This document shows positions 6,154 to 37,515 of a stretch of 64,000 nucleotides of DNA, in pieces (positions within the stretch are counted from its first letter, which is position 1; the number at the start of each line of letters is the position of its first letter). A program made the translations under genes and the position numbers. Source of the stretch: Anaerolineae bacterium (GTDB lineage: Bacteria; Chloroflexota; Anaerolineae; VGOG01); contig JBAWAP010000384.1 of assembly GCA_049589355.1 (NCBI GenBank), positions 2,349 to 66,348 on the forward strand. Direction: 5' to 3'. The notes under the pieces were generated by a model. The model made no database searches, was not told where the DNA came from, and saw nothing but the letters and a program-made list of their open reading frames with translations.

Positions 6154-7365
6154 TCACTCCCCAGACGGCTCCTTCACCGCCAAGACAACAGCCACCAGCG
6201 CGATAGCAACGCCCACCAGGTTGGCCAGGATGGGGGCCTGGAACCCGAATCGGTCGTAGAGTAGACCGCCAATGTAAGGCGCGGGGAAGCCAATCAGCCC
6301 CCGGAAGGCGGAAAGCCGCCCCATTGCCTCTCCTAATTGCTTCGTGGGTACACTGTTGGCCAGAAGCGCCCGTAGGGCCGGCGCCCAGGTGGCGGCCACC
6401 AGCCCAAAGAGAGCATGCAGAGCGGCGAAGGCCACGAAGCTGGTACTGAAGAGCCATCCGCCGACGACGAGGATGCCTATCACCTCCGATAGGGCCAGGA
6501 AAAGCTTGGAGCCATAACGGTCTATCAGCCTCCCAATGGGCAGTTGGGAGAGCGCCCAGACTAGCGAGAGAAGGCCGGACATCATCCCCAACTGGAAGGT
6601 AGTGAAGCCGTAGGTCTCGCTCAGCATCCCGAAGAGAAGGGTTCCCCCCAGTCCCCAGACGAAGATGTCCACGGCCATGGCCCAGTAGAAACCCCGCAGT
6701 TCCCTGGGAGGCACGACCATCCTGATCAGCACTCCCTTCAGTTCGCCCAGGGGAATGTCCCTGGTCGCCCTGGTCAAGGTTTCCTCCAGGAGCCAGAGGA
6801 TGAGGAGCAGGCGCAGGGCCTCCAGTCCAAAGTGCAACAGAAAGACCGGGGCGAAACCCCAGCGGTCAGCGATGAATCCGCCCAGAGCCGGGGCGAAGAC
6901 ACCGGGCACAATCCAAGAGGTCAACTGGAGGCTGTAGGCCAGGCCACGCTGGCCGGTTTGTGCCGACTCGGCGACCAGCGAAATCTCGGCGGGACTGGAA
7001 GCTAAAGTCGCTCCTAATAAGATTACCCCCGCCAGCAGCCATCGCCAATCGCCGAGGATAGCTGCCAGCAGGTAGAACACCATGACCAGGAGGCCCAAGA
7101 GGCTGCCCAGAGCGAGAAGGGGCTTCCTCCCCAGGCGATCGGAGAGCCAGCCACCGATGGGCTGGATAAGGGCGGTTGTAAGTCCCCTCCTCCCACCCAG
7201 GCTCTCCAGGAGGCCAAGCGTGCTCATCGGCGCGCCCAGGCTGAGCACAAAGGGTTGCCACACGGCCTGCGTCATAGTGGAGAACAGGCCAGTCAGGAAA
7301 GAGGTGATGGCAATAACCCGCAGATTCTGGCTTATCCGGCCCCCTTTTATACTTTTGCCTCTCAT
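6154..7365 (-). CDS. MFS transporter
   Basis: 403 aa, ~12 predicted TM helices, MFS-type G-x-L-x-D-R-x-G-R-K motif (GGWLSDRLGRKP). Confidence 0.85.
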   Translation of the reverse strand: MRGKSIKGGRISQNLRVIAITSFLTGLFSTMTQAVWQPFVLSLGAPMSTLGLLESLGGRRGLTTALIQPIGGWLSDRLGRKPLLALGSLLGLLVMVFYLLAAILGDWRWLLAGVILLGATLASSPAEISLVAESAQTGQRGLAYSLQLTSWIVPGVFAPALGGFIADRWGFAPVFLLHFGLEALRLLLILWLLEETLTRATRDIPLGELKGVLIRMVVPPRELRGFYWAMAVDIFVWGLGGTLLFGMLSETYGFTTFQLGMMSGLLSLVWALSQLPIGRLIDRYGSKLFLALSEVIGILVVGGWLFSTSFVAFAALHALFGLVAATWAPALRALLANSVPTKQLGEAMGRLSAFRGLIGFPAPYIGGLLYDRFGFQAPILANLVGVAIALVAVVLAVKEPSGE

Positions 7366-8651
7366 CTTTTAGCAAGGGTGAAGGGGTTCTTCACGTAGGT
7401 TCCAGGGGGATATGGCTTCACCACGACCTCGACGTCTTCCCCGCTGAGGAAGCGGCCCAGCCGTTGGGCCTCGGTCATTAGGGCCTTGTTCTCGACATCC
7501 TGCCAGAGGAGCAATTCGATGGCAGCCTCTAGCTCCCGCCAGACGCCCACCGCCCTCCCATTGACCCAGACGGTGGCGAAGGCATTGCCTGCCCGGTCGA
7601 AGACCTTCTCGTAGTGCTCCGGCGCGAGAAAGCGGCGGCGATCCCGATACCCCATAAGGTAGGGATCGAGGCTGGGAAGCAAGTTGGCAGTCGGCTCTGG
7701 CCCAAGCTGGGTCTCCTGTAGCTGTTGATGATCCGTCGCCAGCATCAAATAGCCCCCGCCCAGGCCCTCAATCTCGGTCTCCACGATCTCGTCGTCCAAG
7801 GCGGACAGGGCCCTCCTTGTCTCCCCTTTGCTGAAGCCGCTCCACCAGGCGATGTCCTCCAGGGTGGCCGGGCCAAGGGCGGCGAGGTAACTTCGCACCA
7901 AGCGAGCCTGTGCCTCATCTGGTGTGAGGGATTCCAGATCTACATCGGGCAACCAGACAGCCAGGGAAGCGTACTCGTGCAGGGTGCTGCGCCAACTGCC
8001 GCGGGGTTTGGCCCTCACCAGAAGGCCCAGGATGCACATGCCTGGCACGATCCTCGAACCCAGGCTAAATTCACCCGCGTAGGGCTTGTCCACGTTGTAC
8101 TTGACCTTGATATTGAGCTCCGGCACCAGTTCGCTCATCTCCGACACCGTGGATGGCCCTCTGTCTGCCAGAATCTCCGCGATCCGCTGATGCAGGCGGT
8201 CCAGCGCCTCCGCTTCTTCTCCCTCTTTGCACAGCCCGGCTTGCACCAGCAACCCGCGTGCCGCGCTCGGGAACCGCCTTTGCACTTGCTTCTTCGTGGC
8301 CTGGAAGAAGGCCGGTAGCTGGTCTGAGGGGACGATGTGCAGTGTCCTGCGCATGGATATTACCCTAACCAGCCTTCTGTTCTCGTACAGTGCCGCATCG
8401 AGTTGCTGACGACTAAACCCTTTCACTCTGCTCCAGAGGGAGAGATAGGGGGTGAGGGCTGACGTGGCGTGCAGGGCGCAGATGTCCTCGACGACCTGCA
8501 CGACATCGTCCCCCCGCGTCTCCGGAGCAAGGTGCTGCTTGCTCAACAGAAACCAGTTGACTTGATCCGGAGTCACTGGCCTGATGCCCACGGTCACCCT
8601 CTGTAGACCTGTTCGTACTTGGCCCCGCACTCCCTGTGCAATTGCAGCCAC
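7362..8651 (-). CDS. Winged-helix DNA glycosylase, YcaQ/AlkZ (DUF1006) family-like
   Basis: ~400 aa with wHTH region and 'RRTLHIVP' motif characteristic of the YcaQ/AlkZ interstrand-crosslink glycosylase family. 5' end overlaps the next ORF, so the true start is probably an internal GTG/TTG. Confidence 0.55.
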   Translation of the reverse strand: MAAIAQGVRGQVRTGLQRVTVGIRPVTPDQVNWFLLSKQHLAPETRGDDVVQVVEDICALHATSALTPYLSLWSRVKGFSRQQLDAALYENRRLVRVISMRRTLHIVPSDQLPAFFQATKKQVQRRFPSAARGLLVQAGLCKEGEEAEALDRLHQRIAEILADRGPSTVSEMSELVPELNIKVKYNVDKPYAGEFSLGSRIVPGMCILGLLVRAKPRGSWRSTLHEYASLAVWLPDVDLESLTPDEAQARLVRSYLAALGPATLEDIAWWSGFSKGETRRALSALDDEIVETEIEGLGGGYLMLATDHQQLQETQLGPEPTANLLPSLDPYLMGYRDRRRFLAPEHYEKVFDRAGNAFATVWVNGRAVGVWRELEAAIELLLWQDVENKALMTEAQRLGRFLSGEDVEVVVKPYPPGTYVKNPFTLAKR

Positions 8652-9004
8652 CTGTCCCGCTGACGCTGGTCGGCCCAGTATGCCTCCTGCTCGTCCAGCC
8701 AGGCCTCCACGCCGATGCGCCGTATCCGCCTCAGGTTCTCCAGCACGGGCAGGTGGGTTCGCCAGATAGGGTCGTAGGCGAACTGGATGATGCGCGTGCA
8801 GGGGAAATCGTCACACTCAGCGCAGCTTTCGAGTCCCTTCTCGGTGATACAACGATAGATGTAGCAGGCACGGCGATGAGGCCCCGCCGCGCAGTGATCG
8901 CAGTCGCAGGCGCAGCCGTGACAGGTCCTATCCAGCAAAAACTCGCTGCAGTTGCCGCAGTAGAGACCGCATGGAGCAGCGAGCTTCTTTCGATCGCTCA
9001 ACAT
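8594..9004 (-). CDS. DUF3795 cysteine-rich protein
   Basis: CGLYCGNC...C..C.C..C...C.EC..FPC pattern. Confidence 0.7.
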   Translation of the reverse strand: MLSDRKKLAAPCGLYCGNCSEFLLDRTCHGCACDCDHCAAGPHRRACYIYRCITEKGLESCAECDDFPCTRIIQFAYDPIWRTHLPVLENLRRIRRIGVEAWLDEQEAYWADQRQRDRWLQLHRECGAKYEQVYRG

Positions 9005-9016
9005 TTTGCATCCTTT

Positions 9017-9622
9017 TTACTCGGGCCTTTTCCTCAGCTTCAGGTCAACGCCAGCTTGCGAGGCCAATGCTTGGATGGACGATTTCATGGCTTTGGCCTT
9101 GGCTTTCAAGTCCAAACCATCAATCTGCTCGCTGGCCAGCATCCCCTCTATCTTGCCTATCGCCTGGCGGATCAGATCGGGAGGCATCAGGGCGCAGGCC
9201 GCACAGTAGAAGCTCATCGAGCGGCCCTCGTTGTAGTTGGCCAGGAGGTGTTCCACCAAAAGCCGTCGTTTCCGCTGCTCCTCCAGGTAGGTTTCCAGCC
9301 CGACCTCCCTGATCCTGTCCAGATTGGGGATAGCGGGCTTGTGGCTCAAGAAGCTGTCCAGTCCCTCCTCCATGCCCAGCACCCTCAGCAGCCTTTCGCA
9401 AGGATACTCGGCGCAGTCAGCGCAGGTGAAAAGCTTCCGCTTGACGACACAGCAGCGGTAGACGCTACAGTAGGAATGTTGCTCGCCCAATTGGCAGCCG
9501 AGGCACCTGCTCTGGGCCTGGGACTGATAGCGGGGGCACAACCCGCAGTAGAGGCCGCAGACACTGGCCAGGTCTCTCTCTTCCACCAAGTTTACGATCT
9601 CTGCCTCCATATTCGCCAGCAA
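9017..9622 (-). CDS. DUF3795 cysteine-rich protein
   Basis: CGLYCGLCPRY...CLGC...C..YRCC...CADCAEYPCERL. Confidence 0.7.
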   Translation of the reverse strand: MLANMEAEIVNLVEERDLASVCGLYCGLCPRYQSQAQSRCLGCQLGEQHSYCSVYRCCVVKRKLFTCADCAEYPCERLLRVLGMEEGLDSFLSHKPAIPNLDRIREVGLETYLEEQRKRRLLVEHLLANYNEGRSMSFYCAACALMPPDLIRQAIGKIEGMLASEQIDGLDLKAKAKAMKSSIQALASQAGVDLKLRKRPE

Positions 9623-9659
9623 AAAGCGTCAGGGAGCTTTCCACGATGCACCCTTTGCG

Positions 9660-10163
9660 TTATCCCTCTGGTTTCTCGAACGCCCGATTCCGAACTGCCT
9701 CATCTACCTGGTAACGGATGTCGGCGTAGACGACGCCACGCCGTGCCCGTTCCTCCTGCTCGCTCAGCCATTGTTCCAACCCCACAGCCTGCAGGCGCCG
9801 GTTGTCGGCGATGAGCGTGGGGTAAATGGCGTTCAGAGCCTCAATGCGGGAGCATGGGAAATCGGGGCACTGGTTGCACAGTTCCAGGCCCCGTTGCTGG
9901 ACGCAAACGCGGATCTGGCAATAGGGTGGACCGCCACCAGCACGACAGCCGGGACAACCACCATTGGCGTGCAAGCCATCCAAGAAGCGCCAGAACTCGG
10001 CAAAGCCGGAGATGCCGGCTCCCCAGTCAGCCCATCCTTCCTCGGCCATCGCCTTCTGTAACGCTGTAGCCCGTTCGGGGATGCGCGATCGGGCAGCACA
10101 CAACCCACAGTGCAGGCCACAGTAAGTCACGAACTCCAATCTCTTGGTCATCTCAGCCTCCAT
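9660..10163 (-). CDS. DUF3795 cysteine-rich protein
   Basis: YCGLHCGLCA...CPGC...C..C..CPDFPCSRIE. Third of three tandem paralogs. Confidence 0.7.
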   Translation of the reverse strand: MEAEMTKRLEFVTYCGLHCGLCAARSRIPERATALQKAMAEEGWADWGAGISGFAEFWRFLDGLHANGGCPGCRAGGGPPYCQIRVCVQQRGLELCNQCPDFPCSRIEALNAIYPTLIADNRRLQAVGLEQWLSEQEERARRGVVYADIRYQVDEAVRNRAFEKPEG

Positions 10164-10423: not shown

Positions 10424-10966
10424 CTATGTCGTTCGCGCCATCAATAGTTCATCGTAAAAGACACTGTCGTAGTAAAGGGCTTGTGGTTCGATTCCGTAAA
10501 CCTGAAACCCACAGTGAGCATAGCAGCGAATCGCACGAGTATTCGTTGTGACCACCGCTAGTTTGACAATCTTTACATCCTGAGTTCGTGCCCAATCCGC
10601 GCAAGCAGTTACGAGTCCCTCGGCAATACGAAACCCGCGCCAATCGGGTCGGACGTACATTCCCACGATATTTGCGCTGTGCTGTATCTTGGGCGAGTTC
10701 GTGCGAGTAATGCCACACATGCCTATCACCTGTTGGTCGTGAACGGCAAAATAAATCATGACCGCGCTATCCGTGCTGTTAAACCGAAGTCTCTCTGTCC
10801 AGAAGGTCATCGGCTTGGCAAGGTTCGCCGCGTAATCCGAGGAAAATGCCTCAGGATGATTACGCAAAGCCTCTAAGCGCAAGTCGCGATAGGCTGGGGC
10901 ATCCTCCTCTCTTGCTGAACGTATTGTTACTGTTCCACGCGGAGTAGTGATAGGTGTATCCATTGT
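10424..10966 (-). CDS. GNAT family N-acetyltransferase
   Basis: Acetyl-CoA binding motif region (VRPDWRGFRIAEGLV). Start placed at internal MDTPI. Confidence 0.75.
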   Translation of the reverse strand, partial: TMDTPITTPRGTVTIRSAREEDAPAYRDLRLEALRNHPEAFSSDYAANLAKPMTFWTERLRFNSTDSAVMIYFAVHDQQVIGMCGITRTNSPKIQHSANIVGMYVRPDWRGFRIAEGLVTACADWARTQDVKIVKLAVVTTNTRAIRCYAHCGFQVYGIEPQALYYDSVFYDELLMARTT

Positions 10967-10977
10967 CCTTTGCTGAT

Positions 10978-11586
10978 TCAAGTTGGAATTGGACACCGAC
11001 CATAGTGCGAGCGGCATGGCAGAGAACTCGCCGCACGACGCAGAAAGACGCGCCGGGTAAGTGGTGGGCTCTTGGACAACTGAGCTTGAGCGCGCTCTGG
11101 TGTGAGGTGATAGACCGCCCCTGGACTGAAAAGCAACACATCATCATGCCACGATAGGTATGGCCGGTGGAAATGTCCGAAAATGATGGCATCCACCTGG
11201 CTGAAGGCTCGCAACACCTGTCGCTGGAAGCCACCCCACCAGAAGCGGCGGCCAGTGAACAGTTCGTTGGAAAGCATGCTGGGCAACTCTCGCCACACTG
11301 ATCGCCGACCGTGAACTAAACCAATCCGTGCCTTTCCTATCTCAATGACAGTCTTCACGGGCAGGTCGAGGGCGTCGTGATCACCCTTGACCGCCACCAC
11401 CGGAGCAAGTAACCTCAACTCGTCCAACACCTCTGAGTTGGTAATGTCGCCAGCGTGCAAGATCAGATCCACATCCTGAAAGAGATGCACAATCCCCTTG
11501 GGCAGCGCAGGCAAAAACTCGGGTACGTGTGTGTCAGCAATCACTCCTATCCTGTAAGCGGCCATCGGTAACTCTTTATGCGCCAC
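10978..11586 (-). CDS. Metallophosphoesterase (YfcE/MJ0936-like)
   Basis: IGVIADTHVP...HAGDI...GHFHRP metal-binding motifs. Confidence 0.8.
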   Translation of the reverse strand: MAHKELPMAAYRIGVIADTHVPEFLPALPKGIVHLFQDVDLILHAGDITNSEVLDELRLLAPVVAVKGDHDALDLPVKTVIEIGKARIGLVHGRRSVWRELPSMLSNELFTGRRFWWGGFQRQVLRAFSQVDAIIFGHFHRPYLSWHDDVLLFSPGAVYHLTPERAQAQLSKSPPLTRRVFLRRAASSLPCRSHYGRCPIPT

Positions 11587-11595
11587 TGCCTCACG

Positions 11596-12279
11596 TCATC
11601 GTCCCCGCGCCCGGCCCATAAGGGCGATAGTTCCTGGGTAAACGCGCTCCTCGACCACGTCGAACCCCACACTCGCCAGCAACACCATCAACTCATCCCT
11701 GGTGTACTTTCGAGCCCGCTTGCTCCTGCTGGCCAGCACTTTGAGTTTCCAGAAGATGAGCCTGGGCAACGTCGTCTTCAGCTTCTTTTTCAGTGCTGCC
11801 GTCTGTGAACTATCCACGGCCATGACCAGGAATAGGCCATCGGGCTTCAGCACACGCCTGATCTCGCGCAGAAAGCGCGGCGGACTGGCAACACACTGGA
11901 GGGCATGTATGCAGATAACGTGGTCGAATGACTTGGCAGGGAAACGCAGATCGCGGTTAAAATCCGCTTGCTCAAACGTAACGGACGCCTGTGGAAGCCG
12001 CGCCGCTTTTGTGCTGGCTTTCTTCAGCATCCCCAGTGCGAAATCAATGCCCACGACGTCGAATCCGACCTCTGCCAGCGCCAGGGCATAGTTGCCGGTG
12101 CCACATCCAATATCGAGCACCCGTTCGTTGTCGCGCCGACGGTAGCTGGTCAACCAGGCAACCGTCGCTTGGATGTCTTCCCGAGTTTCGGGAAGCTGAA
12201 GATAGTCATCCCAGGTATAGCTGTGCAGACTCCAGAACACACGCTCAAGCCAGTAAAATGGGCGCCTGTTCTTCGGCAT
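11596..12279 (-). CDS. Class I SAM-dependent methyltransferase
   Basis: VLDIGCGTGNYALALAE...FDHVICIHAL...LKPDGLF motifs I-III. ATG at 12279 preferred over the long upstream ORF. Confidence 0.8.
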   Translation of the reverse strand: MPKNRRPFYWLERVFWSLHSYTWDDYLQLPETREDIQATVAWLTSYRRRDNERVLDIGCGTGNYALALAEVGFDVVGIDFALGMLKKASTKAARLPQASVTFEQADFNRDLRFPAKSFDHVICIHALQCVASPPRFLREIRRVLKPDGLFLVMAVDSSQTAALKKKLKTTLPRLIFWKLKVLASRSKRARKYTRDELMVLLASVGFDVVEERVYPGTIALMGRARGR

Positions 12280-12469
12280 AGCTGTACTTGCTTTTGCCTC
12301 TCTCAAAAACTCACAGTTCGATATTTCGCCCGGCAGGGATGGCCTTCGGCGATTTCCAACTTTCGCTGGCCTGGACGTCCAACGACTGACTATAGCGTTC
12401 CGAACTTGCGCTCGGGGAAGTGGGCCCCGTGGGAGCAGACCAACTCCTGCTACTCCTTGTTGCCTGGCA

Positions 12470-13252
12470 TCAATGCTCGGCGTCAACTGGAATGAGCTGC
12501 CGTGGCTTCCCATCGGGCCACAACATCACCCGGCCAGCTAGCGTATTGTCTCGGATGAACATGATGACCACCTCGGCGACCTCATCAGGCTGGATCAGAA
12601 CAGGTGGAGGAGGAAAGTCAAGGGCTACGAGCTTATCTGGCGTCGTCGTAGCTAAGTAACGCTGCACCGCCGGCGTCTCGACCCAACCCGGGCAGATGCA
12701 GTTCACACGGATGCCGGCTTCTTTGAGGTAACCCAACGCGGCGGTGAGGCGCACTACGCTCGCCTTGCTGGCTGCGTACTCCGGGGCATCGTACGGTCGG
12801 TATCCGATCCCCGCCATTGAAGAGATATTGATAATCGCCCCGCCTCCACGCTTGCGCATGGCCTGCATGCCAAACTGGATGCCCAGCATGACGCCGCGCA
12901 AGTTGACGTCGAGCGTGCGGCTCCAGTGACCGGGTTCCGCTTCAGGAAAATATGGCTCAGGAGCGATGCCAGCGTTGTTCACGAGAATGTCCAGGCCCCC
13001 GAAGCGTTGCTCTACAAAGGCGATCATGGCCTGCACGTCTGCCTCGACCGCCACATCGGCCAGAACCAAGGCAGCGCGGCCACCATCTGCCTCAATTTGA
13101 CGCACCGTCTCTGCGCCGCCATCTTGATCTATGTCGGCAACGACAACTGCTACGCCTTCGCGTGCTAGTCGGGTAGCTATCACACGGCCGATACCAGCAG
13201 CAGCTCCGGTAACGAGTGCAACTTTATCTTTCATATCAACTCCTATGGCCAA
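12470..13252 (-). CDS. SDR family oxidoreductase
   Basis: TGAAAGIGR Rossmann motif, NNAG, YxxxK (YAASK). Confidence 0.85.
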   Translation of the reverse strand: MAIGVDMKDKVALVTGAAAGIGRVIATRLAREGVAVVVADIDQDGGAETVRQIEADGGRAALVLADVAVEADVQAMIAFVEQRFGGLDILVNNAGIAPEPYFPEAEPGHWSRTLDVNLRGVMLGIQFGMQAMRKRGGGAIINISSMAGIGYRPYDAPEYAASKASVVRLTAALGYLKEAGIRVNCICPGWVETPAVQRYLATTTPDKLVALDFPPPPVLIQPDEVAEVVIMFIRDNTLAGRVMLWPDGKPRQLIPVDAEH

Positions 13253-13262
13253 AAAACATCTC

Positions 13263-14147
13263 TTACAAAGTCAGGCCATGCTTCTCGGCGAGCATCCGCG
13301 CCCTGGCCATCAGCGCGTCGTGATAGGGCTTGCGGTTGGCGGCGATGTGGCGGTATCCCTCCACCAGGTCGGGGTAATGCCTCTCCAGCACCCTCCTGAC
13401 CTTGCCCCAGATCGCGCCGCTCAGTTTCATGCTGTCCACGAAAATGTAGGAGACACCCGCCCGCGCCAGTTCTCCGAAGAGGGCATCCATTTGCTCCTCT
13501 CCGTCTGAGAGGAAGGGCAGAAGCGGCCCGCAGAAGGCCCAGGTTCTGATCCCCGCACTCGCCAGCTCTGCCAGGGTTACCAGGCGGGCTGGAACAGGCG
13601 AGGAGCGGGGCTCAAACACGCGCCGCACCTCCTCGTCGAGAGTGGCGATGGTGAAGCCTATTTCTATGTCAGGGAGACGGAGAAGGAGGTCGAGGTCGCG
13701 CAGCACCAGGTCGGATTTGGTGAGGATGGAGACGGGAAAATCGCAGGCGGTGAGCACCTCCAGGCAGGCGCAAGTGATTTGATACTTCCTCTCCAGCGGC
13801 TGGTAGGGGTCGGTTACCGTGCCAATGGCGATGTTACCCCTCTTGGCTCGCCTCATCTGTCGGGCCAGCACCTCCGCTGCGTTGATCTTGGCGTCCACAA
13901 AGGTGCCCCAGTCCTCTTTGTGGCCGGTGAAGCGCTTCATGAAGATGGCGTAGCAGTAGACGCAGCCGTGGCTGCAGCCGACGTAGGGGTTGATGGCATA
14001 GTCAACCCCCTCGATGCCCGATTTGGTGAGGATGGACTTGCAGTTTATTTCCTTTACGATCACGTCGTGCTTTCCATGGTCACTGGTAATCCCCAAGCCA
14101 GTGGATTCTGGAGAAGTCGTCCCGGACAGTGTTGTACAGCCTCTCAT
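13263..14147 (-). CDS. Radical SAM protein, spore-photoproduct-lyase-like (SPL family)
   Basis: CSHGCVYCY CxxxCxxC motif; N-terminal KSILTKSG region typical of SPL-like 'DNA repair photolyase' radical SAM proteins. Confidence 0.75.
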   Translation of the reverse strand: MRGCTTLSGTTSPESTGLGITSDHGKHDVIVKEINCKSILTKSGIEGVDYAINPYVGCSHGCVYCYAIFMKRFTGHKEDWGTFVDAKINAAEVLARQMRRAKRGNIAIGTVTDPYQPLERKYQITCACLEVLTACDFPVSILTKSDLVLRDLDLLLRLPDIEIGFTIATLDEEVRRVFEPRSSPVPARLVTLAELASAGIRTWAFCGPLLPFLSDGEEQMDALFGELARAGVSYIFVDSMKLSGAIWGKVRRVLERHYPDLVEGYRHIAANRKPYHDALMARARMLAEKHGLTL

Positions 14148-14517
14148 CGGCTGTCCAGAACTCGCCTTCCATCATCTCGGCCAGGGCCAGGTAGTGAGTA
14201 TCATAGGCAGCGGGGCGGTCGAAGCGAGCGGCCAGGTCGAAGGCTTTCAAAGAGATGTTGGATGGGTGGAGTAGGCGCACTCCAAGCATAAGGGCCCCGC
14301 GGACGGCCTCTTTGGCCTCCTCCACACTCATTAGGCCCCGCTTCGCTTTTCGCCAGATGGCCGAGGTGATCTCGAAGCAGAAGAGGTAGGGAGCGACGAT
14401 TTCTCGATCCTCATTCAGCCATTTTCCCCACAAGGCCAAAGCGAGGGGGCGATCTGGTTCCGGGGCCACAAGTTTGACGACAATATTAGCATCAACGCAG
14501 ACCGGTGATCTCGGCAT
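14080..14517 (-). CDS. vapC: PIN-domain toxin VapC
   Basis: VDANIVV...CFEITSAIW...YDTHYLALAE acidic PIN residues. Start ATG at 14517 overlaps the antitoxin 3' end. Confidence 0.7.
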   Translation of the reverse strand: MPRSPVCVDANIVVKLVAPEPDRPLALALWGKWLNEDREIVAPYLFCFEITSAIWRKAKRGLMSVEEAKEAVRGALMLGVRLLHPSNISLKAFDLAARFDRPAAYDTHYLALAEMMEGEFWTADERLYNTVRDDFSRIHWLGDYQ

Positions 14518-14758
14518 CCCGCTCCTCCCGCATCTGGCGGATATCCTCGACGCAGCTAGGCATCTCGCCGTATTTCCGTTCGAGTTCATCACCCAAGGCT
14601 CGTACCCGCTCCAGTGCCTCCAGACTTTGTCTCCTCCGTATCTCCCGCTCTGTCGCCTCGGCGATCAATCGTGAACGCTCCCCACTGGGGATCAGCCGCT
14701 TGATCTCTTCCCAGAGCCCACGAGGGAAAACCAGGGAAACCCGTACTGTATCGCTCAT
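14492..14758 (-). CDS. Antitoxin (ribbon-helix-helix/VapB-like)
   Basis: 88 aa immediately upstream of and overlapping the PIN gene; basic N-terminus then helical C-terminus. Confidence 0.5.
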   Translation of the reverse strand: MSDTVRVSLVFPRGLWEEIKRLIPSGERSRLIAEATEREIRRRQSLEALERVRALGDELERKYGEMPSCVEDIRQMREERDAEITGLR

Positions 14759-26724: not shown

Positions 26725-26742
26725 TTGGTCACTCCTTTCTCG

Positions 26743-27659: not shown

Positions 27660-30659
<3,000 letters not shown>

Positions 30660-31425
30660 GTCCCTCAGCCTGAACTTGGGCGGAAATCAGTTTTAGCCGC
30701 GTTGGCCACTCGTCAGGCTGTAACGCTGGCGCGTCAAACAGGGCTGGCGTCTCGACCCCGCCGATTACAGCGGGAAAGAACTCGATGCTGATTTCGTCTA
30801 CAAGCCCAGCACGCAAGAGCGCGCCGTTCAACTTGCCCCCAGCCGTTGACACCACACATGTAACACCCAACTGGTACCCCAGCTTCTCCAGGGCAGCGTG
30901 AAGATCAACTCGCTCTTCCCCTGCCACCAGGTAGGGAATCTTTTCGCGCTGGAGGTAGGCCAGATACTCGGGTGGAGTATGGTGGGCTACCAGGACCAGC
31001 AGGTGCCACCCTTCCCATCCCTCAAATTCTTTGTAAAACCATCGTACGCGTCCTCGACTATCCACAGCCGTGAACCACCCCTGATGTCCCGGACGATGGA
31101 CGACATCGTGTGGCAAAAAGTCCTGATACAGTGACTGAGGATCATCGTCAACGGGCGGGAGAGGCTCGGGCTCCGCGTCATTCAAAACAAAAGAGCCGCT
31201 GCCTTCAAGAAAGACTTGTGGTTTGTAGGTAAGCTTGAGCCGTTCGTATACATCGTCGCTTGATCCCGCGACAGCCTGCCATCTCTCGTCCCCGTATAGC
31301 AGAAGGACATCGGGTGCAAGCGTTATCCTCCCATCTACTGAAGCAACTGCATGGACTACCACTCGTGGTCTGTCCATAGACACTTTCCTCCTCTGTTCAA
31401 AATTGTGCCAGGTATCTTGAATTTA

Positions 31426-32388
31426 TCATCCAACGGATGCGTACTGCGCTGCGATGGCGCGGGCCCGTTCGCTCACCAGGCAACGTAATTCCTCCGGCTC
31501 CAGCACCACGGCGTGGGGGCCATAACTGAACGCCAGCCGGGCCGGCCACTCCAGGTCTAACGCGGCGAAGGTGACGATCACCGAGCCGTCGGGCTGCTCG
31601 TCCACCGTGTCCCAGAAGGCACGGTCATCGAGCGCCAGGAGCGCCGCCTCTGGGGCGAAGCACATGCGGACTTGCACCTGTGGCTGTGCCTCTGGCTCCG
31701 CAGCCAGGTACTCCTGGATGTCGAAATCGCCTGGCACCTGGAAGATCTGGTTGAGCAGTGTCAGTTCGATGATGCGATCCACGCGGAAGGTACGCACGGC
31801 CTCGCGCAGGTGGCAGTGGCCGATGACGTACCACCAGCCCCAGCGGTGGATCAGCGCATAGGGATCGAAATCTCGCTGCAGGGGTTCTGACTGCCCACGG
31901 CTCCGGTAGGCCACCGTGACTCGTCGCCGCTCACGGGTCGCGCGCCGCAGTTTCTCCAGCAGCGGTACCAGCGGCGTGAAGTCGGCGCGGTGCATACCGG
32001 TCGCCCACAGTGTCCGACGCGCCCAGGCCACTTCGTGCCGCTGTTCGTCGGGGAGCACGTTAACCAGCTTGGCCAGCGCGCCTTGCGCCGCCTCACGGTA
32101 CATCTGGCCCCAAATCTCTTCCACCAGGCTGGTGCCCAGATAGACGGCGACGGCCTCCTCGGGGGTGAAAACAAGCGGGGGCATCTTGTAGCCACGCACT
32201 AACGAGAAGCCGCCGTAGGGGCCGCGCTCGGAGTAAACCGGGATGCCCATCTCGTCCAGCATCATGATGTAGCGGTGCAAGGTGCGCACCGAGATACCCA
32301 ATTCCTCCGCCAGTGCAGCCGCTTTCTGGCTGGGTCGCCGCTGCAATAGCATGATCAGTGAGATCAGTCTGGTAGCAGTGTTCAACAT
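31426..32388 (-). CDS. WYL-domain transcriptional regulator (HTH-WYL-WCX, YafY/PafBC/DriD-like)
   Basis: N-terminal HTH (SVRTLHRYI), central WYL (HRWGWWYVIGHCHLREAVRTFRVDRI), C-terminal WCX-like region. Confidence 0.8.
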   Translation of the reverse strand: MLNTATRLISLIMLLQRRPSQKAAALAEELGISVRTLHRYIMMLDEMGIPVYSERGPYGGFSLVRGYKMPPLVFTPEEAVAVYLGTSLVEEIWGQMYREAAQGALAKLVNVLPDEQRHEVAWARRTLWATGMHRADFTPLVPLLEKLRRATRERRRVTVAYRSRGQSEPLQRDFDPYALIHRWGWWYVIGHCHLREAVRTFRVDRIIELTLLNQIFQVPGDFDIQEYLAAEPEAQPQVQVRMCFAPEAALLALDDRAFWDTVDEQPDGSVIVTFAALDLEWPARLAFSYGPHAVVLEPEELRCLVSERARAIAAQYASVG

Positions 32389-32497
32389 GATGCTCTCCCT
32401 CGATCGTCCGATGGACGGGGTACGACAATATTCTACACCAGGTTTATGACAAAAGCTGGCATAATTGTAGTGGAGTTTGAGGAAAAATCAAATGGAT

Positions 32498-32941
32498 TTA
32501 GCCAGGAAGAGGGACTCCACAGGCGCGGCAGGTCTCGCTATAGATGTCCACCGGTTTGCGGCAAGCAGGGCAGCGCCAGCGAGCCTCCTGCTCAACCAGC
32601 CAGGCATCGAGGCCGACCTCGGCCAGGCGGCGCAGGTTGGAGAGAGGGATGTCGCGGCGGTCGGCGCTGAAGGCGGCCAGTTCCTTGCAGGGAAAGTCCA
32701 TGCACTCATAGCAGAAGGTGATGCCCTGGTCCTGCGTGCAGGTCTTGAATCGGCAGTCCGGAGTCCAGAGGCAGTCAAAGGGGCCACGACAGCCCTCGCA
32801 GCGGATGTCCTCCGGCTGGCAGTGGAAGGCCTGGCGGGCGGCCCGTTCCAGCCGTTCGGTGTCCCTGTCTTTGTACATCCGGTAGATGCCGCAGGCCCCG
32901 CAGTAGAGACCGCAGGCGCTGGCTAATGTAGTGTCAGTCAT
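32498..32941 (-). CDS. DUF3795 cysteine-rich protein
   Basis: CGLYCGACGIY...CEGC...C..C..C...CYECMDFPCKEL. ATG at 32941 forms ATGA overlap with the stop of the upstream toroid gene. Confidence 0.75.
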   Translation of the reverse strand: MTDTTLASACGLYCGACGIYRMYKDRDTERLERAARQAFHCQPEDIRCEGCRGPFDCLWTPDCRFKTCTQDQGITFCYECMDFPCKELAAFSADRRDIPLSNLRRLAEVGLDAWLVEQEARWRCPACRKPVDIYSETCRACGVPLPG

Positions 32942-33837
32942 TTCACCTCTTCCCCGAATTGTTTGAGCACGTGCAAGGCTTTGAGTGTGATCCACTTGCT
33001 CGGTTGCCCATTGCGCTCGATGCGCACGGCGGTGGAGCCGCCCTCCTTGAACCAGCGACCATCGTCCTGCTGTTTCTTCACGACGTGCTGCACCAGTGTC
33101 CAAAACCGTGGGTCGGCGGCGTAGCCGCAGGCGGCCAGCGCCTCCAGCGCGTCCAGCAGGTCGGACTGAAAGTACCACGGGAAGCCGAATCGCAGCCAGC
33201 AGGCTTCCTCACCCTCGAAATCGAAGTCGTGGGAGAGGAGTGCTTCGGCTGTACGGGCTATCGCGCCGCGGACGTCCCAACCTTTAGGGGCGGCGGCAAA
33301 GGCCCACAGCGCTTTGACTGCCAGCCAGTGGCAGGGGTGCTGCTTCTGGTACCAACAGATGAGGCCATCGTCCTGCTCCAGCCGCTCAATCATCGCTCTC
33401 CAGCCTTCATCCACACGGGGATCGTCCCCGTAGCCGAAATGGGCGAGGAAGCGCAGGCAGTTGGCAGTGTAGCAGGGCACAATGCACACCGGCCGGCGCA
33501 TCGGGAGCCAGGGCTTGCTCAGCACGAACTCGCAGCCTCGGTGAGTGCGCTCGTCGGGCGGGACGCCTAAACGGGAAAGGATGAGGAGTTGTCCTGATGC
33601 GCGTTTGATCCCGGTTGCCCTTTCCGGCGTATCCCACCAGCCAGTGGGATCCTGGCGGGCGAAGATGGCCTGCACGTCCTTCGAGCCGGGGATAGCCGCG
33701 CGTGCCTCGCTCACTTCGGGGCTGCCGGTGGGCCGTTCAAGGATGTCGGTGAGCGTGAAGTAGCGCACCGAGGAATTATCTAGTTCGAGAAGCCAATCGG
33801 TTGGATCTGCCTTTAAGAGGTCTTTCCAATTCGCCAT
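32938..33837 (-). CDS. Prenyltransferase/QW-repeat alpha-toroid protein, paralog 2
   Basis: DLLKADPTDWLLELDNSSVRYFTL N-terminus; QDPTGWWD, QDDGLICWY, QQDDGRWFKEG repeats. Confidence 0.5.
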   Translation of the reverse strand: MANWKDLLKADPTDWLLELDNSSVRYFTLTDILERPTGSPEVSEARAAIPGSKDVQAIFARQDPTGWWDTPERATGIKRASGQLLILSRLGVPPDERTHRGCEFVLSKPWLPMRRPVCIVPCYTANCLRFLAHFGYGDDPRVDEGWRAMIERLEQDDGLICWYQKQHPCHWLAVKALWAFAAAPKGWDVRGAIARTAEALLSHDFDFEGEEACWLRFGFPWYFQSDLLDALEALAACGYAADPRFWTLVQHVVKKQQDDGRWFKEGGSTAVRIERNGQPSKWITLKALHVLKQFGEEVK

Positions 33838-33871: not shown

Positions 33872-34882
33872 TCATCCCGATTCCGCCGGCAACCAGTGCA
33901 GTCCCTCGCCCTGGGCGGCGAGCGCCAAGCCCCACCCGAACGGCTCGCTCACCCGCAGCACGGCGGTAAGACAGTGCGTGCCAGACGCTAACACCTGCCG
34001 GAGGGCTTGCATCCCCAACTCTACGTACCCGCGTGCCGCGCGGTCCGCAAAGCCTTGGAAAGTGTTCTCCCCACTGAAGATAACCTGCCCGTCCAACTCC
34101 AGGGTAAGAGCATCACTGAAGCCAAACTCGAATGTCATTGCCCCTCCCTCAGGCGTCTCGAAACGTCGGGTCAGACGCACTTCGCTCAACGAGATTGGCA
34201 GGTAGCGGTTCAGGTTGATCACACCATTCGGTTCGCAGGTCACTACGCCGTAACCCTCCACGAACCAGGCTCTGACAGTGCCTTCGCCAGCGCTGGGCAT
34301 CTCTCCGCGTGGGATATCCAGCCTATCACAGGTTGAGACTCGCAGGTCGCAAAAGTAGGCCGGGCGATAGGTCCACAGCCCAAAAAGCCCAGCCGCGATT
34401 GGATGAGCCAGCTTCTCCATGATCAACGGCGGCTGCCCATCTACCGAAACAGCGGCTCGGCCGCCACAAAAATCCACCTTCAGTCGGAACCAGTGCCCGG
34501 TCGGCACCTGCGTGGCGCGTTGGTAGCTCGGGCCATGATACACCTGCCAGGTGTTCGATCCATGGAAGACCGGGTCATACTGCAGCGCATCCCACTGGCC
34601 ACTGACGTGAGGTACGGCGTAAGCCAGCTCAAAGTTGAGTACATCGGCGACACGGAAAGCGACACCCGGATACGCCGGCCCATCAGCGCCAATCAGCATC
34701 TCTATGCTGGCGTCCGTCATCCGGTGGCCGGGGATCAGGGCCAAACCGTCCTCCAACCGCAGCGCCTCGCGCCCCTGCCAGGTGACGACCTCAGCCCGCG
34801 CCGCGTGGATTTCCAGGTCGGGAATGTTGGTAAGGCTGTGTTCCAGGAGAGTGTCCATCTCGAATGACTCCTTGCGTTTCAC
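33872..34882 (-). CDS. Hypothetical protein (possible tandem concanavalin/LamG-like jelly-roll domains)
   Basis: 336 aa, beta-rich, no recognised catalytic motif. Confidence 0.3.
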   Translation of the reverse strand: MKRKESFEMDTLLEHSLTNIPDLEIHAARAEVVTWQGREALRLEDGLALIPGHRMTDASIEMLIGADGPAYPGVAFRVADVLNFELAYAVPHVSGQWDALQYDPVFHGSNTWQVYHGPSYQRATQVPTGHWFRLKVDFCGGRAAVSVDGQPPLIMEKLAHPIAAGLFGLWTYRPAYFCDLRVSTCDRLDIPRGEMPSAGEGTVRAWFVEGYGVVTCEPNGVINLNRYLPISLSEVRLTRRFETPEGGAMTFEFGFSDALTLELDGQVIFSGENTFQGFADRAARGYVELGMQALRQVLASGTHCLTAVLRVSEPFGWGLALAAQGEGLHWLPAESG

Positions 34883-34918: not shown

Positions 34919-35848
34919 TCAGGCATCCGCGGCCTTGATCGCGTACAGCGCCTGCCACGTGACCCATTTACTGGGTCGGCGACGCGGTTCCAGTGGGGTC
35001 CACATACGGCTACCGTAGGGATTAGCACCGTTCCAGCGACCGTCGTCACGGCGTCGGGTCTCCAGCCACTCTAGCGCCTTGCGAAAAGCGGGTTTTTCGT
35101 TCACGCGCCCCAGGTCGGTCAGGGCGCGCAGGGCGAAGAGCACGTCAGCCTGGTAAAAGAGCGGAAAGTTGAGCCGGTCCCACAACTTGTGGCGTGGGCC
35201 GCTGCTGGGATAGTTCCCCTCGCAGAGTTCAAAACGGCCCAGGAAGCAGACACCGCTCGCAACCGCCTCTTGGACAGCACCACTGCGCTCGCCGCTGGGG
35301 ATATGCCCGAAACCCCATAATGCCCGCACCACGCCCCAGGCGCAGGGCAGGTCTCCGTTGATGTTGCAACGCCACTCCCCCGGCGTGCCTGCGCGGGCCA
35401 GTTCTGCCTCGAACTCCCCCACCCGTTCATCCTGTCCGTGACCGAGGGCGTGCAGGTAACCGATAAGGTTGCCGTGGAAGCAGGGCCAGACAGTGGAGCG
35501 GTCCTCACCGTACACCCTGTCAATCATCCGATGGCAGGCAGCGGCGATACGTTCGTCCTGCCCATCGGCGGCGAGTTCGGCCAGCAGGAGCAATTGCCAA
35601 TGAGTCGAGGTATACTTGTAAGTGTAATAACCCCGCTCACCTTCCCAGCGTCCATCGCCGGCATAGTGGGAGAGAATCTCGACCGCCGGCCCTCGTTCCA
35701 GGATCGCCCGACGCATCTCGATCACTTCCGCATCTCCCTCGGTTCGGTCGAGCAACTTGACCAACGTCCAGTAGCGAACCGAGGGGTTCTCTGGCTCCAG
35801 CAGCCATTCCGTCGGGTCGGCTTTGAGTCTACTTTTCCAGTTTCTCAT
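34919..35848 (-). CDS. Prenyltransferase/QW-repeat alpha-toroid protein, paralog 3
   Basis: RLKADPTEWLLEPENPSVRYWTL N-terminus; AGDGRWEGE, RRDDGRWNGANP repeats. Confidence 0.5.
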   Translation of the reverse strand: MRNWKSRLKADPTEWLLEPENPSVRYWTLVKLLDRTEGDAEVIEMRRAILERGPAVEILSHYAGDGRWEGERGYYTYKYTSTHWQLLLLAELAADGQDERIAAACHRMIDRVYGEDRSTVWPCFHGNLIGYLHALGHGQDERVGEFEAELARAGTPGEWRCNINGDLPCAWGVVRALWGFGHIPSGERSGAVQEAVASGVCFLGRFELCEGNYPSSGPRHKLWDRLNFPLFYQADVLFALRALTDLGRVNEKPAFRKALEWLETRRRDDGRWNGANPYGSRMWTPLEPRRRPSKWVTWQALYAIKAADA

Positions 35849-35868: not shown

Positions 35869-36489
35869 CTATCGCACTCCAAGAATTTCTCTCGCCACCT
35901 CCAACGTTCGATCTGCCAGAAACAGCAGTCTCCTTTGGATCTCCTCCTCGTTAATCAGGCCGCCAAAGAGGTTCTCTGTCGTGAAGCCAGCGTTATTGAT
36001 GACCTCGAAACCGGCCAGCTTTCTCCCCATACACTTCGCATCGTCGGACACTAAGCCTGGCGTCCATTGTGCACCATCTGACCAGTGAGGGGCGGCCAGG
36101 ACCACGGCGCTGACGACAGAGCGTTTTAGTTTCTCCACCGGCGCCTGATGGGAGAAAGCTTGCGCTCTCTGAGAAAAGGCTATCCACAGAGCGGGTGGCA
36201 GGCCGCCATAATTCGGTATGAAGAGTAGCAAGATATCCGCCTGCTAGCACTTCTCCCAGATCATTCGTACATCGTCTTCAATCGGGCAGGCTTCATCTGC
36301 TCTGCGCTGTGGATCGAAGCGAGCCACACACTCATACGAGCAGCGCTGGCAGGGGGTGATTTGGCAGTCATAGAAGTTGATCAACTCCCCCTCTACGCGC
36401 TGCTGTTTGAGCCGCTCCAGCATAAACTCGGCGAAGTCATAGCAATTGCCTCGCTCTCTGGCGCTGACTACCAAGGCCAGGGCTTTCAT
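35869..36489 (-). pseudogene. Flavodoxin-like/NADPH-dependent FMN reductase-like gene interrupted by an in-frame TAG
   Basis: ORFs 36244-36489 and 35869-36231 are in the same frame, separated only by TAG (WEKC*QADILLLFIPNYGG). Confidence 0.45.
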
Positions 36490-37445
36490 CGCCTCCTCCC
36501 TCTCCCCGGGTTTGGAATGTAACGCAGGGCCACTTCGGCGGCTTGTGCTCGCTGCTCATCCTGTAGCCAGCCCTCCAGAACCGGCCGCACGGCCTCAGGC
36601 TGGCGCTGGCCCAGATAGTGGAGTGCAGAAGCGGCGGCTCGCCAGACAAAGCGCCGCTCGTCAGCCGCCAACTGGCCGAGGATTTCGAGTGCCTCCTGCA
36701 AATGTCGAGTTCCCCCGAAGCTACGAAAGGCCATGGCCACATTCCACCGCACCTCTTCTCTGGGGTCATCGGCCCAGCGACGAAGGCGGGCCAGAGTGGG
36801 CCGCGGATGGCACCTCAAGAGCCCATCGCCGATGGCATAGGGACCCAGATTCTTGCGTACGTACTCCTCGCGGTCGGCGAGTAGCGACTCCACCAGGTTG
36901 AGGAGGGCCTCGGCCCACTCTTCTCTCCGCTCGTTGCCCGCCTTCCGCACGGCGATGGTCACACCTCGCCGCACGTTGGCAGAAGGATGCCGCGTCCAGG
37001 ACCAGAGAACGCGGTAGAAGACGTCGAAGTGGGCTACGAGGAGGCTGCCCAGCGTACTATGGGCAGCCTCGCGGACCCACCAGTCCTCGTCGTCGGCGAG
37101 ACGCAGAAGCCATGCCTGAACCTCGGCAGCCCGCAAGGGCCAGTAGTGACGAAGCAAAGGGGCTGCGACGGCTCTCGCCGCTGGCTCCGGCCGCTCGGCC
37201 AGACGGCAGGTCCAATCGTAGAGCTCTTCCGTCCCAGGACCGAGGGCCTCCTCGATAGTCACCATGGCCTGGTAGCCAGTCTTGCCCCACTTGGTGGTCA
37301 TCAGGGTAGCAACCAGGCCCTCCTCGTCATCGGCTTCGAGAGCGCGTTGCGCAGCCTGAGCGTCGAACTGGCCCTTGGACGAACTTGCAAGCCCAGGTGT
37401 GCGGGTTGTTTCCTGGTGTTGCGGCAACCGGTTGGCCAACGACAT
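36486..37445 (-). CDS. DNA alkylation repair protein (AlkD/AlkC-like HEAT-like-repeat glycosylase family)
   Basis: WWVREAAHSTLG, NVRRGVTIAV, EVRWNVAMAF motifs typical of the DNA_alkylation HLR family. Confidence 0.65.
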   Translation of the reverse strand: MSLANRLPQHQETTRTPGLASSSKGQFDAQAAQRALEADDEEGLVATLMTTKWGKTGYQAMVTIEEALGPGTEELYDWTCRLAERPEPAARAVAAPLLRHYWPLRAAEVQAWLLRLADDEDWWVREAAHSTLGSLLVAHFDVFYRVLWSWTRHPSANVRRGVTIAVRKAGNERREEWAEALLNLVESLLADREEYVRKNLGPYAIGDGLLRCHPRPTLARLRRWADDPREEVRWNVAMAFRSFGGTRHLQEALEILGQLAADERRFVWRAAASALHYLGQRQPEAVRPVLEGWLQDEQRAQAAEVALRYIPNPGRGRRR

Positions 37446-37465
37446 GGCTACATCCCCTTTATATA

Positions 37466-37507
37466 GAACGAATGTTCGACATCCACATTATACCAGAACA
37501 TCTGTTC
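37466..37507. promoter_or_regulatory. Two Cheo-type LexA (SOS) boxes GAAC-N4-GTTC
   Basis: AGAACGAATGTTCG (37465-37478) and AGAACATCTGTTCG (37495-37508), positioned over the spacer and +1 of the promoter below. Confidence 0.6.
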
Positions 37508-37515
37508 GTTGTCAA
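37487..37515 (-). promoter_or_regulatory. Consensus sigma-70 promoter (TTGACA-17-TATAAT) driving the AlkD-like gene and downstream minus-strand genes
   Basis: Minus-strand reading cTTGACAacgaacagatgttctggTATAATg, ~45 nt upstream of the ATG at 37445. Confidence 0.6.

Follow-up and report, generated by a model that had tools for sequence, protein, structure and literature searches.

A plastic, chromosomal cluster of candidate genotoxic-stress defence genes in an uncultured member of the Chloroflexota

The window analysed here is a 64-kb (64,000-nt) stretch of contig JBAWAP010000384.1 (assembly GCA_049589355.1) from an uncultured member of the Chloroflexota, probably placed in the Anaerolineales, and it contains a 31-kb array of about 36 genes (6154-37445) in which families of DNA repair and genotoxin resistance are concentrated. 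The list of open reading frames (ORFs) and the profile searches place every gene of the array on the minus strand, as a first-pass annotation of this DNA had stated; plus-strand ORFs within the same interval (e.g. 8636-9814) merely overlap Pfam-supported minus-strand genes. The co-orientation is probably in part a leading-strand (replication-strand) bias, because about 19 of the 23 genes in the right flank are on the minus strand as well and the cumulative GC skew falls steadily across the window; a run of 36 same-strand genes has a probability of about 0.001 at p = 0.83. The concentration of repair and resistance families that had been remarked on is real, with 10 of the 36 array genes belonging to such families against none of the 30 genes in the flanks (Fisher p = 0.0012, in a post hoc test).

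The array is made up of several promoter-separated blocks, with a 110-nt gap after the first six genes and then three gaps of 212-260 nt. At least four promoter-bearing gaps, that of a conserved promoter in front of a WYL-family regulator gene among them, lie downstream of the first unit, which is headed by a LexA-box promoter. A scan for intrinsic terminators yielded fewer sites than chance, so that read-through from one block into the next cannot be judged from the sequence.

The LexA promoter and its six-gene unit

The first unit comprises the following features.

37466..37515, minus: SOS promoter, with -35 element TTGACA at 37515-37510, extended -10 element TG-TATAAT at 37492-37487 and a 17-nt spacer
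36486..37445, minus: HLR protein (DNA_alkylation and HEAT_2), head gene of the LexA unit
35869..36489, minus: FMN_red-type flavoprotein gene, whose Pfam FMN_red match runs across a stop
34919..35848, minus: PT3, an alpha/alpha-toroid protein with three invariant cysteines and no Pfam model; PT1 and PT2 are its paralogs
33872..34882, minus: 336-aa protein with no match in Pfam, NCBIfam or PADLOC
32938..33837, minus: PT2, alpha/alpha-toroid paralog, 35% identical to PT3
32498..32944, minus: DUF3795 g, final gene of the unit, bearing a zinc ribbon at its C terminus; the gene probably starts at 32944, where it overlaps the end of PT2

The promoter matches the consensus at 12 of 12 positions (TTGACA-N17-TATAAT, 37515-37487), and two perfect LexA boxes of the form GAAC-N4-GTTC are placed on it, the first (37496-37507) inside the 17-nt spacer and the second (37466-37477) about 10 nt 3' of the -10 element and 20 nt 5' of the start codon (ATG, 37445) of the first gene. 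The window holds three perfect GAAC-N4-GTTC sites in all, where 0.84 would be expected by chance; it holds no E. coli-type LexA box (CTGT-N8-ACAG) and no lexA gene, and relaxed searches for the same (Cheo-box) operator did no better than chance. An earlier study describes the motif in Firmicutes and Actinobacteria and, in variant forms, in Chloroflexi (PMC4951493). We consider it valid for this clade because a perfect AGAAC-N4-GTTCT sits directly 5' of uvrA in 5 of 22 Chloroflexota loci (L007, L009, L012, L013 and L031), and these five boxes, confined to about 3% of the sequence, make up 5 of the 15 perfect sites found in 375 kb. A contig of a Chloroflexota metagenome-assembled genome (MAG), L006, carries two perfect boxes at 15810 and 15872, 62 bp apart.

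Genes 1 to 6 (37445-32498) overlap or are separated by at most 36 nt. Because this tight packing ends at the 110-nt gap, and further promoter-bearing gaps follow, the LexA promoter plausibly drives these six genes alone, about 5 kb of DNA. The claim of a LexA-box promoter was therefore correct as to the promoter itself, but not as to the extent of what it heads, which had been taken to be the whole array. The ATG of the FMN_red gene overlaps the HLR stop codon (ATGA), making the two translationally coupled, and the gene contains an in-frame TAG at 36246-36244 that could mark a pseudogene, a sequencing error or read-through.

The HLR protein matches PF08713 (DNA_alkylation) with 46.4 bits against a cut-off of 21, over profile positions 50-176 of 213. 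A single-sequence search of the PDB returned generic HEAT repeats only, whereas a profile built from 30 homologues found AlkD2 (4X8Q, 1e-9; also 3L9T and 6M9M) and AlkC (5VHV, 2e-6), with Bacillus cereus AlkD absent at E<=0.1. By these matches the protein is assigned to the AlkC/AlkD/AlkD2 superfamily, closest to AlkD2 and then to AlkC; the DNA_alkylation/HEAT part of its earlier description as an AlkD-like protein of the YtkR2 type is borne out, and the placement near AlkD itself is not. AlkD2 of Streptococcus mutans has no excision activity (PMC4433238). Orthologues at 72-90% identity are common in Anaerolineae metagenomes, and some (P0040 and P0041, 73-75% identity) carry as a fusion partner a GNAT acetyltransferase domain, a family also represented by separate genes in several of the clusters described below.

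Two further families in this unit are represented elsewhere in the array. The toroid family has three paralogs (PT1, PT2 and PT3), all outside any Pfam family and sharing three invariant cysteines; an AlphaFold2 model of one of them is a confident alpha/alpha toroid, and orthologues are common in Anaerolineae metagenomes. DUF3795 (PF12675) accounts for eight genes, which share ten invariant cysteines. An AlphaFold2 model from seven of the window's paralogs was unusable (pLDDT 55), the homologue search returned single-domain proteins only, with no informative fusions, and the literature mentions the family only incidentally. The 115-aa DUF3795 d (15539-15886) has more than 1000 homologue clusters, of which the best 120 are 71-90% identical; the homologues are all single-domain proteins, mostly from Chloroflexota metagenomes, and the conservation is unusually high.

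The WYL-uvrA block and the downstream blocks

The second block contains the following features.

32425..32491, minus: promoter region of the WYL gene, TTGTCA-N17-TAGAAT with CAATTATGCCAG 5' of it
31426..32388, minus: HTH-WYL-WCX transcription factor (Pfam WYL 3e-23, WCX 5e-16, HTH_11 2e-11)
30616..31383, minus: RibD_C (pyrimidine-reductase-like) protein, whose gene overlaps the start of uvrA
27660..30659, minus: UvrA, canonical class I excinuclease subunit, supported by equivalog models and domains
27249-27659, minus: glyoxalase/bleomycin-resistance-like protein
26743-27252, minus: GNAT gene, frameshifted, 3' of the glyoxalase gene
between the GNAT gene and DUF3795 f, minus: a 318-aa protein, then a C45 acyltransferase/hydrolase
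23713-24702, minus: DUF3795 f
22645-23667, minus: toroid PT1, at the end of the block

The WYL promoter is about 90% identical at the same position in a related locus, L090, whose proteins are 64-82% identical to those of the window, and it is still recognisable in the more distant L003. An orthologue of the WYL factor (82%) lies 5' of UvrA in L090, and a 46% homologue adjoins UvrA in L003. By its position the promoter appears to head the block that runs from WYL, RibD_C and UvrA through toroid PT1, in the remainder of which (22645..27659) every gap is at most 61 nt, and the WYL factor is co-oriented, and probably co-transcribed, with uvrA. WYL factors such as PafBC and SiwR, on binding single-stranded DNA (ssDNA), activate DNA-damage genes that include uvrA and DinB-like genes (PMC10693628).

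UvrA had been put forward as a paralog of the DrrC-like kind, which it is not: it scores 1431.7 bits with NF001503 (cut-off 1147) and 1365.4 bits with TIGR00630 (cut-off 729.8), and it carries the UvrB-interaction domain (PF17760 UvrA_inter, E 3e-34) together with UvrA_DNA-bind. Its identity to the UvrA of an Anaerolineales MAG is 75%, against 53-67% for the other UvrAs returned, which come from many phyla. Synteny centred on UvrA over 80 loci is essentially absent, the exceptions being WYL in L003 and, in L010, GNAT together with DUF3795. Relative to the 81%-identical orthologue in L010, the GNAT gene of the window has a frameshift near 26917-26926, with residues 1-112 in one frame and 110-154 in another.

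The features of the three remaining blocks are as follows.

14804..22404, minus: third block, beginning after a 240-nt gap
20588-21220, minus: GyrI-like cyclopropanoid-hydrolase homologue (GyrI-like E 2e-13)
19927-20604, minus: protein resembling uracil-DNA glycosylase (UDG), with a marginal PF03167 match (26.3 vs 24.3 bits)
19347-19844, minus: DUF1706/DinB protein (DUF1706 E 5e-9, barely above DinB_2 at 1.5e-8)
18340-19317, minus: HhH-GPD Ogg/AlkA-like protein (Pfam 24.1 bits, under the 26.2 cut-off)
16453-17496, minus: double DUF1706 (PF08020) protein, two stretches, E 5e-62
10424..14821, minus: fourth block, headed by a 12/12 consensus promoter at 14821-14793
14080-14821, minus: VapBC-like pair made up of a PIN toxin and, in the gap, an antitoxin ORF of ribbon-helix-helix-like type, with the perfect promoter 5'
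13263-14147, minus: SplB-related radical-SAM protein of the PA0069/Rv2578c group
6154..10163, minus: fifth block, after a 260-nt gap, with DUF3795 c, b and a, the AlkZ-like gene and the transporter gene
7362-8651, minus: AlkZ-like glycosylase homologue (HTH_42; PF06224 E 4e-68, positions 1-329 of 329)
6154-7365, minus: major facilitator superfamily (MFS) transporter, with an ATGA overlap with the AlkZ-like gene and hence translationally coupled

The third block begins with an aldo/keto reductase (AKR) carrying a ferredoxin domain, followed by the GyrI-like, UDG-like, DUF1706/DinB and HhH-GPD proteins, and continues with a short-chain dehydrogenase/reductase (SDR), the double DUF1706 protein, a 38-aa ORF, DUF3795 e and d, and an alpha/beta hydrolase. 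The GyrI-like protein is homologous over its full length (residues 2-206 of 210, E 4e-46) to Listeria Lin2189 (3B49). With the residues of Lin2189 mapped by hand from the alignment (chain numbering being native +3) and their roles taken from PMC5684135, it keeps both catalytic glutamates, E157 and E185, and the aromatic-cage residues W85, W99 and Y187, features by which cyclopropanoid hydrolases are defined, with Y46 replaced by F and F154 by Y, in agreement with the earlier assignment to the YtkR7/C10R6 type. The three ClbS/DfsB (DUF1706) domains that had been predicted were also found, two of them firmly; the double protein's C-terminal domain matches the solved structures 6ANR (ClbS, E 7e-9) and 5COF (2e-11), and the third domain is marginal.

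Among the glycosylase-like proteins, the prediction of AlkA-like and UDG-like members is supported in part. The HhH-GPD protein matches bacterial Ogg (4EJY) at E 1e-19 and the NCBIfam ogg model at 1e-18, under its cut-off as with the Pfam model, and its motif reads GVGPATV, in which the Ogg catalytic lysine is absent, while the aspartate is out of alignment register; a scan of metagenomes for this protein returned three short contigs only. The UDG-like protein matches the Thermus family-5 UDG 2D3Y at E 6e-5 over 59 residues. In the fourth block, the VapB-like antitoxin and PIN toxin are followed by the SplB-related radical-SAM protein, an SDR, a methyltransferase, a Metallophos_2 protein and a GNAT protein. 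The radical-SAM protein had been described as SPL-like; in the profile search it matched related radical-SAM families (mobile-pair B 6e-57, PA0069 5e-52, Rv2578c 4e-51, each under its cut-off) and left the SPL model itself unmatched. Through a 146-nt direct repeat (76% identity, 12303-12448 and 24764-24909), the C45 acyltransferase gene has its 3' end duplicated in the space between the SDR gene and the methyltransferase gene, and this duplicate is a trace of rearrangement within the array.

The AlkZ/YcaQ-like assignment in the fifth block is secure at the family level, and the C-terminal half of the protein aligns to AlkZ (5UUJ, E 9e-15). Glycosylases of this family are distinguished by their catalytic motifs, Q-phi-D in YQL, (Q/H)-phi-Q in AZL and H-phi-(S/T)-(D/E) in AZL2 (PMC9040887). 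The motif L-H61-A-T-S64 of the window's protein, located by eye where the Pfam match begins, in an N-terminal segment that aligned to no solved structure, agrees with AZL2 at three of four positions, and thus resembles that clade. In Streptomyces, AZL2 genes never occur within 20 kb of a biosynthetic cluster, and AZL2 and YQL glycosylases, which lie outside such clusters, have been proposed to protect against environmental genotoxins (PMC9040887).

These observations bear on whether the array protects its host against a genotoxin of the host's own, made by a biosynthetic cluster elsewhere in the genome. The combination of AlkZ-like, HLR, GyrI-like and ClbS-fold proteins with UvrA and an efflux pump does mirror the resistance sets of the azinomycin, yatakemycin/CC-1065 and colibactin clusters (PMC9040887, PMC5684135). 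Against this, polyketide synthase, nonribosomal peptide synthetase, tailoring and other biosynthetic genes are absent both from the 64-kb window and from the +/-10 kb around nine related clusters; the AlkZ-like motif resembles that of AZL2, UvrA is canonical, and hydrolases of the Lin2189 type occur widely among non-producers, as do ClbS-like proteins. We regard self-resistance as very improbable, and the suggestion that the toxin is self-produced as unsupported; nor is a specificity for cyclopropane- or azabicycle-type toxins, which had also been proposed, established.

The flanks code for ordinary metabolic functions (thiolase, aldehyde ferredoxin oxidoreductase, alcohol dehydrogenase, glycosyl transferases), with a nitroreductase and a beta-lactamase-fold protein nearby, and they also hold a reverse transcriptase of group-II-intron type, an ATPase that is a defence candidate and, 24 kb away, an integrase. 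The ATPase (45462-46829, minus) matches the candidate phage-defence protein PDC-M31A at E 5e-142, and a 230-aa ORF adjoining it (region 44792-46829, minus), which belongs to no Pfam family, may be its partner. The reverse transcriptase (RVT_1) lies at 59355-62176 beside a divergent tyrosine integrase, where the GC content is lower (0.48-0.53). A tRNA-Gly(CCC) gene (37738-37812, plus) has its 5' end toward the array and an 11/12 promoter just 5' of it (region 37694-37812) that diverges from the LexA promoter; an Rfam scan found tRNA only. We rejected a mobile genomic island, given that the array contains no integrase (the nearest is at 61106) and no flanking repeats surround it, that the tRNA faces it with its 5' end, and that its GC content (0.55-0.62) is like that of the flanks. 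A phage-defence island was likewise rejected, as PADLOC gives the array proteins only a generic WYL match.

Related clusters in other Anaerolineae

The clustering signal described in this section comes from neighbourhood look-ups centred on the HLR and toroid genes, not from UvrA-centred synteny. In about seven other Anaerolineae lineages an HLR gene or its toroid partner sits with other families of the array, most often DUF3795, and a core of HLR, toroid and DUF3795 is present in four lineages (L085, L088, L090 and L096), with differing gene orders. The operon in L085 opens with DNA_alkylation, AlkZ-like (its second gene), DUF3795, hydrolase and DUF1706 and continues with DNA_alkylation, toroid, HLR, DUF3795 and toroid; a LexA box lies in the spacer of the 12/12 promoter at its head. 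L088/L089 have the order DUF3795, toroid, toroid, radical SAM, HLR, DUF3795, DUF3795, GNAT, under a promoter with the same two-box layout as in the window, one box in the spacer and one after the -10 element. In L090 (GCA_964412395.1) the order is HLR, DUF3795 c, DUF3795 b, Metallophos, DUF3795 g and GNAT, followed further on by WYL (82%), UvrA and glyoxalase. Genes from opposite ends of the window's array are thus adjacent there, the orthologues of DUF3795 c and b directly following the HLR gene, in one 14-kb cluster beside WYL-UvrA-glyoxalase. Orthologues of DUF3795 g are 61% identical in L088, 74% in L090 and 70% in L096.

The UvrA beside WYL in L090 (15870-20398) is called as a 1235-aa product with a Transglut_core match, its first 78 residues being split off by about 1.8 kb that contain an aldo/keto-reductase fragment; a misassembly is one possible cause of the interruption, an insertion or an intein-like element another.

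In L096, L098, L099 and L100 a toroid gene occurs with HLR/DNA_alkylation, DUF3795, radical-SAM, GyrI-like or HhH-GPD genes. A Y-family polymerase adjoins the L098 cluster, and that of L099 includes a MerR-GyrI fusion and two DNA_alkylation genes, between which lies a radical-SAM protein (13585-14712) 30% identical to that of the window and fused to an HHH_8 DNA-binding domain. A tRNA-like sequence lies just 5' of the toroid cluster in L098. L083, a 90% relative, keeps AKR, GyrI, UDG, HhH-GPD and DUF3795 d and is missing the DUF1706 genes and the SDR. There are also counter-examples, in that the HLR gene stands alone or in an unrelated context in L087, L092 and L095. Subsets of the same families therefore cluster again in related genomes and are not scattered, and the cluster is a recurrent but fluid association.

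It could be argued that there is no functional unit here at all, and that housekeeping and accessory genes co-oriented on the leading strand, together with one small LexA operon, were given a common theme by post hoc selection. UvrA is indeed ordinary, with neighbours that differ in nearly all of the 80 related loci; most of the window is minus-strand and its GC skew is steady; gene content differs even in the 90%-identical L083; and the array contains pseudogenes and a duplicated gene fragment. Chance co-orientation sits poorly with the return of the array families around HLR and toroid genes in seven other lineages, four of them with the core and in different orders, with the union in L090 of genes from both ends of the array, and with the enrichment relative to the flanks. 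We consider it quite unlikely that the array lacks a common function.

Genotoxic-stress defence and its alternatives

Given these data, we favour, at a probability of roughly 0.55, the reading that the array is a plastic, chromosomal, multi-operon cluster for defence against genotoxic stress caused by environmental alkylating or crosslinking agents, and probably under the control of the SOS response and of the WYL factor. Neither the description as one LexA operon nor that as a self-resistance cassette fits it. Its regulatory elements would provide two DNA-damage-responsive entry points, the LexA-repressed HLR operon and, by analogy with PafBC and SiwR, the WYL-headed block with uvrA, and most likely its targets are the alkylating or crosslinking electrophiles of the environment at large.

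About half of the 36 genes encode generic detoxification-type enzymes, and it was not unreasonable to consider that the array might instead serve general detoxification of xenobiotics and reactive electrophiles, with the AKR, two SDRs, the FMN reductase, GNATs, DinB-fold proteins, glyoxalase, hydrolases and MFS pump acting on small toxic molecules, and with DNA-repair genes a minority and not the organising principle. The breadth of the DinB/DUF1706 and GyrI-like folds as small-molecule-binding families would fit such a role, as would the nitroreductase and the beta-lactamase-fold protein in the nearby flanks. However, the regulatory signals that can be read (LexA boxes, and a WYL factor beside uvrA) are DNA-damage signals, the core shared with relatives consists of HLR, toroid and DUF3795 with AlkZ-like, DNA_alkylation and SplB-related radical-SAM proteins and not of oxidoreductases, and the radical-SAM homologue of L099 is fused to a helix-hairpin-helix DNA-binding domain. 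On balance we think general detoxification unlikely.

Several points weigh against genotoxic-stress defence. For roughly half of the genes, namely SDRs, GNATs, AKR, C45 hydrolase, methyltransferase and the toxin-antitoxin pair, no role in DNA damage is evident, and the enrichment test is post hoc. The nearest relative of the head HLR protein is AlkD2, a protein devoid of glycosylase activity, the assignments of UDG and of the third DUF1706 domain are both marginal, and the HhH-GPD protein, as aligned, has no Ogg catalytic lysine and an unaligned catalytic aspartate. In five of the eight cluster lineages the head of the cluster carries no perfect LexA box, most of the 80 loci show no conservation around UvrA, and co-transcription and LexA/WYL control are inferred from sequence alone. 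Two genes are disrupted (the in-frame TAG in FMN_red and the GNAT frameshift), for which relaxed selection or assembly errors may be responsible.

On the reading that the array is a genotoxic-stress defence cluster, a mechanism can be sketched from the families present, the observations beneath it being sequence features, family memberships and recurrence. DNA damage would generate ssDNA, on which RecA would drive cleavage of LexA and so de-repress the strong promoter at 37515-37487, leading to production of the AlkC/AlkD2-like HLR protein, the two alpha/alpha-toroid proteins, the 336-aa protein and a DUF3795 protein. The WYL regulator, if it senses ssDNA as PafBC and SiwR do, would drive its own conserved promoter, which would also serve uvrA for nucleotide excision repair, the glyoxalase/bleomycin-resistance-like protein and further genes. 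Toxins might be inactivated by the Lin2189-type cyclopropanoid hydrolase, with both of its catalytic glutamates, and by the three ClbS-fold domains; damaged bases might be excised by the AlkZ-like protein with its AZL2-like motif, the lysine-less Ogg/AlkA-like HhH-GPD protein and the UDG-like protein; and the MFS pump, coupled in translation to the AlkZ-like gene, might provide export. The core of HLR, toroid and DUF3795 genes returns across Anaerolineae, with other modules gained, lost and shuffled in evolution. Protection of bacteria that do not themselves make the toxin is known both for ClbS-like proteins, in bacteria not producing colibactin (PMC8907063), and for Lin2189-like hydrolases (PMC5684135).

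The array shares features with several known systems. As in the Gram-positive-type SOS regulon, the operator is an identical Cheo box that overlaps a sigma-70-type promoter and in relatives precedes uvrA. However, the putatively LexA-controlled genes of the array (HLR, alpha/alpha-toroid and DUF3795) are not known SOS genes, the array lacks recA, lexA and a translesion polymerase, and uvrA here has no LexA box of its own. The LexA regulon of Bacillus subtilis reportedly includes yhaZ, a gene of the DNA_alkylation family. Like the self-resistance sets of genotoxin clusters (AlkZ for azinomycin, YtkR2/C10R5, YtkR7/C10R6, ClbS and DrrC-like UvrA), the array joins an HTH_42 glycosylase, an HLR protein, a GyrI-like hydrolase, the ClbS fold and an efflux pump; it differs from them in having no biosynthetic cluster, an AlkZ-like motif that is AZL2-like rather than (Q/H)-phi-Q, an HLR protein nearer AlkD2/AlkC than YtkR2/AlkD, a housekeeping UvrA, and what appears to be regulation by the DNA-damage response.

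As with PafBC, SiwR (of the dinS operon) and DriD, the factor encoded in the array has the HTH-WYL-WCX architecture and adjoins DNA-damage genes; PafBC controls uvrA, and SiwR controls adjacent genes of the DinB superfamily (PMC10693628). Unlike these three, the factor described here is co-oriented with uvrA, its activation by ssDNA is proposed by analogy, and the element upstream of it is CAATTATGCCAG...TTGTCA-N17-TAGAAT. The Ada response of E. coli and Bacillus is a further parallel, as an inducible alkylation-repair set that includes a monofunctional glycosylase; the signal here would be SOS or ssDNA rather than methyl-phosphotriester sensing, and homologues of Ada, Ogt and AlkB were not found in the array.

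The main new result is the recurrence of the array families around HLR and toroid genes in other Anaerolineae lineages; that DUF3795 and the toroid family are consistently present where clusters are LexA-headed stands out as the most interesting point still open. One proposal, which we regard as a long shot, is that these two families are unrecognised SOS-induced components of a pathway for DNA alkylation or electrophile damage in which they act in partnership with HLR proteins, their role being for instance that of metal-thiolate alkyl acceptors or scavengers (the Cys4-Zn principle of Ada) or of Fe-S lesion sensors, which would make the cluster a new repair or tolerance system widespread in the Chloroflexota.

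If the array is a genotoxic-stress defence cluster under LexA and WYL control, the SOS regulon of a poorly studied and mostly uncultured phylum would extend to DUF3795, to a toroid family outside Pfam and to AlkD2/AlkC-like HLR proteins, and the arrangement suggests that the LexA and WYL layers of the DNA-damage response adjoin at one locus. The array would also be a compact set of candidate genes by which a non-producer could resist natural products that alkylate or crosslink, with a bearing on how bacteria survive genotoxin warfare in the environment and on resistance-guided genome mining.

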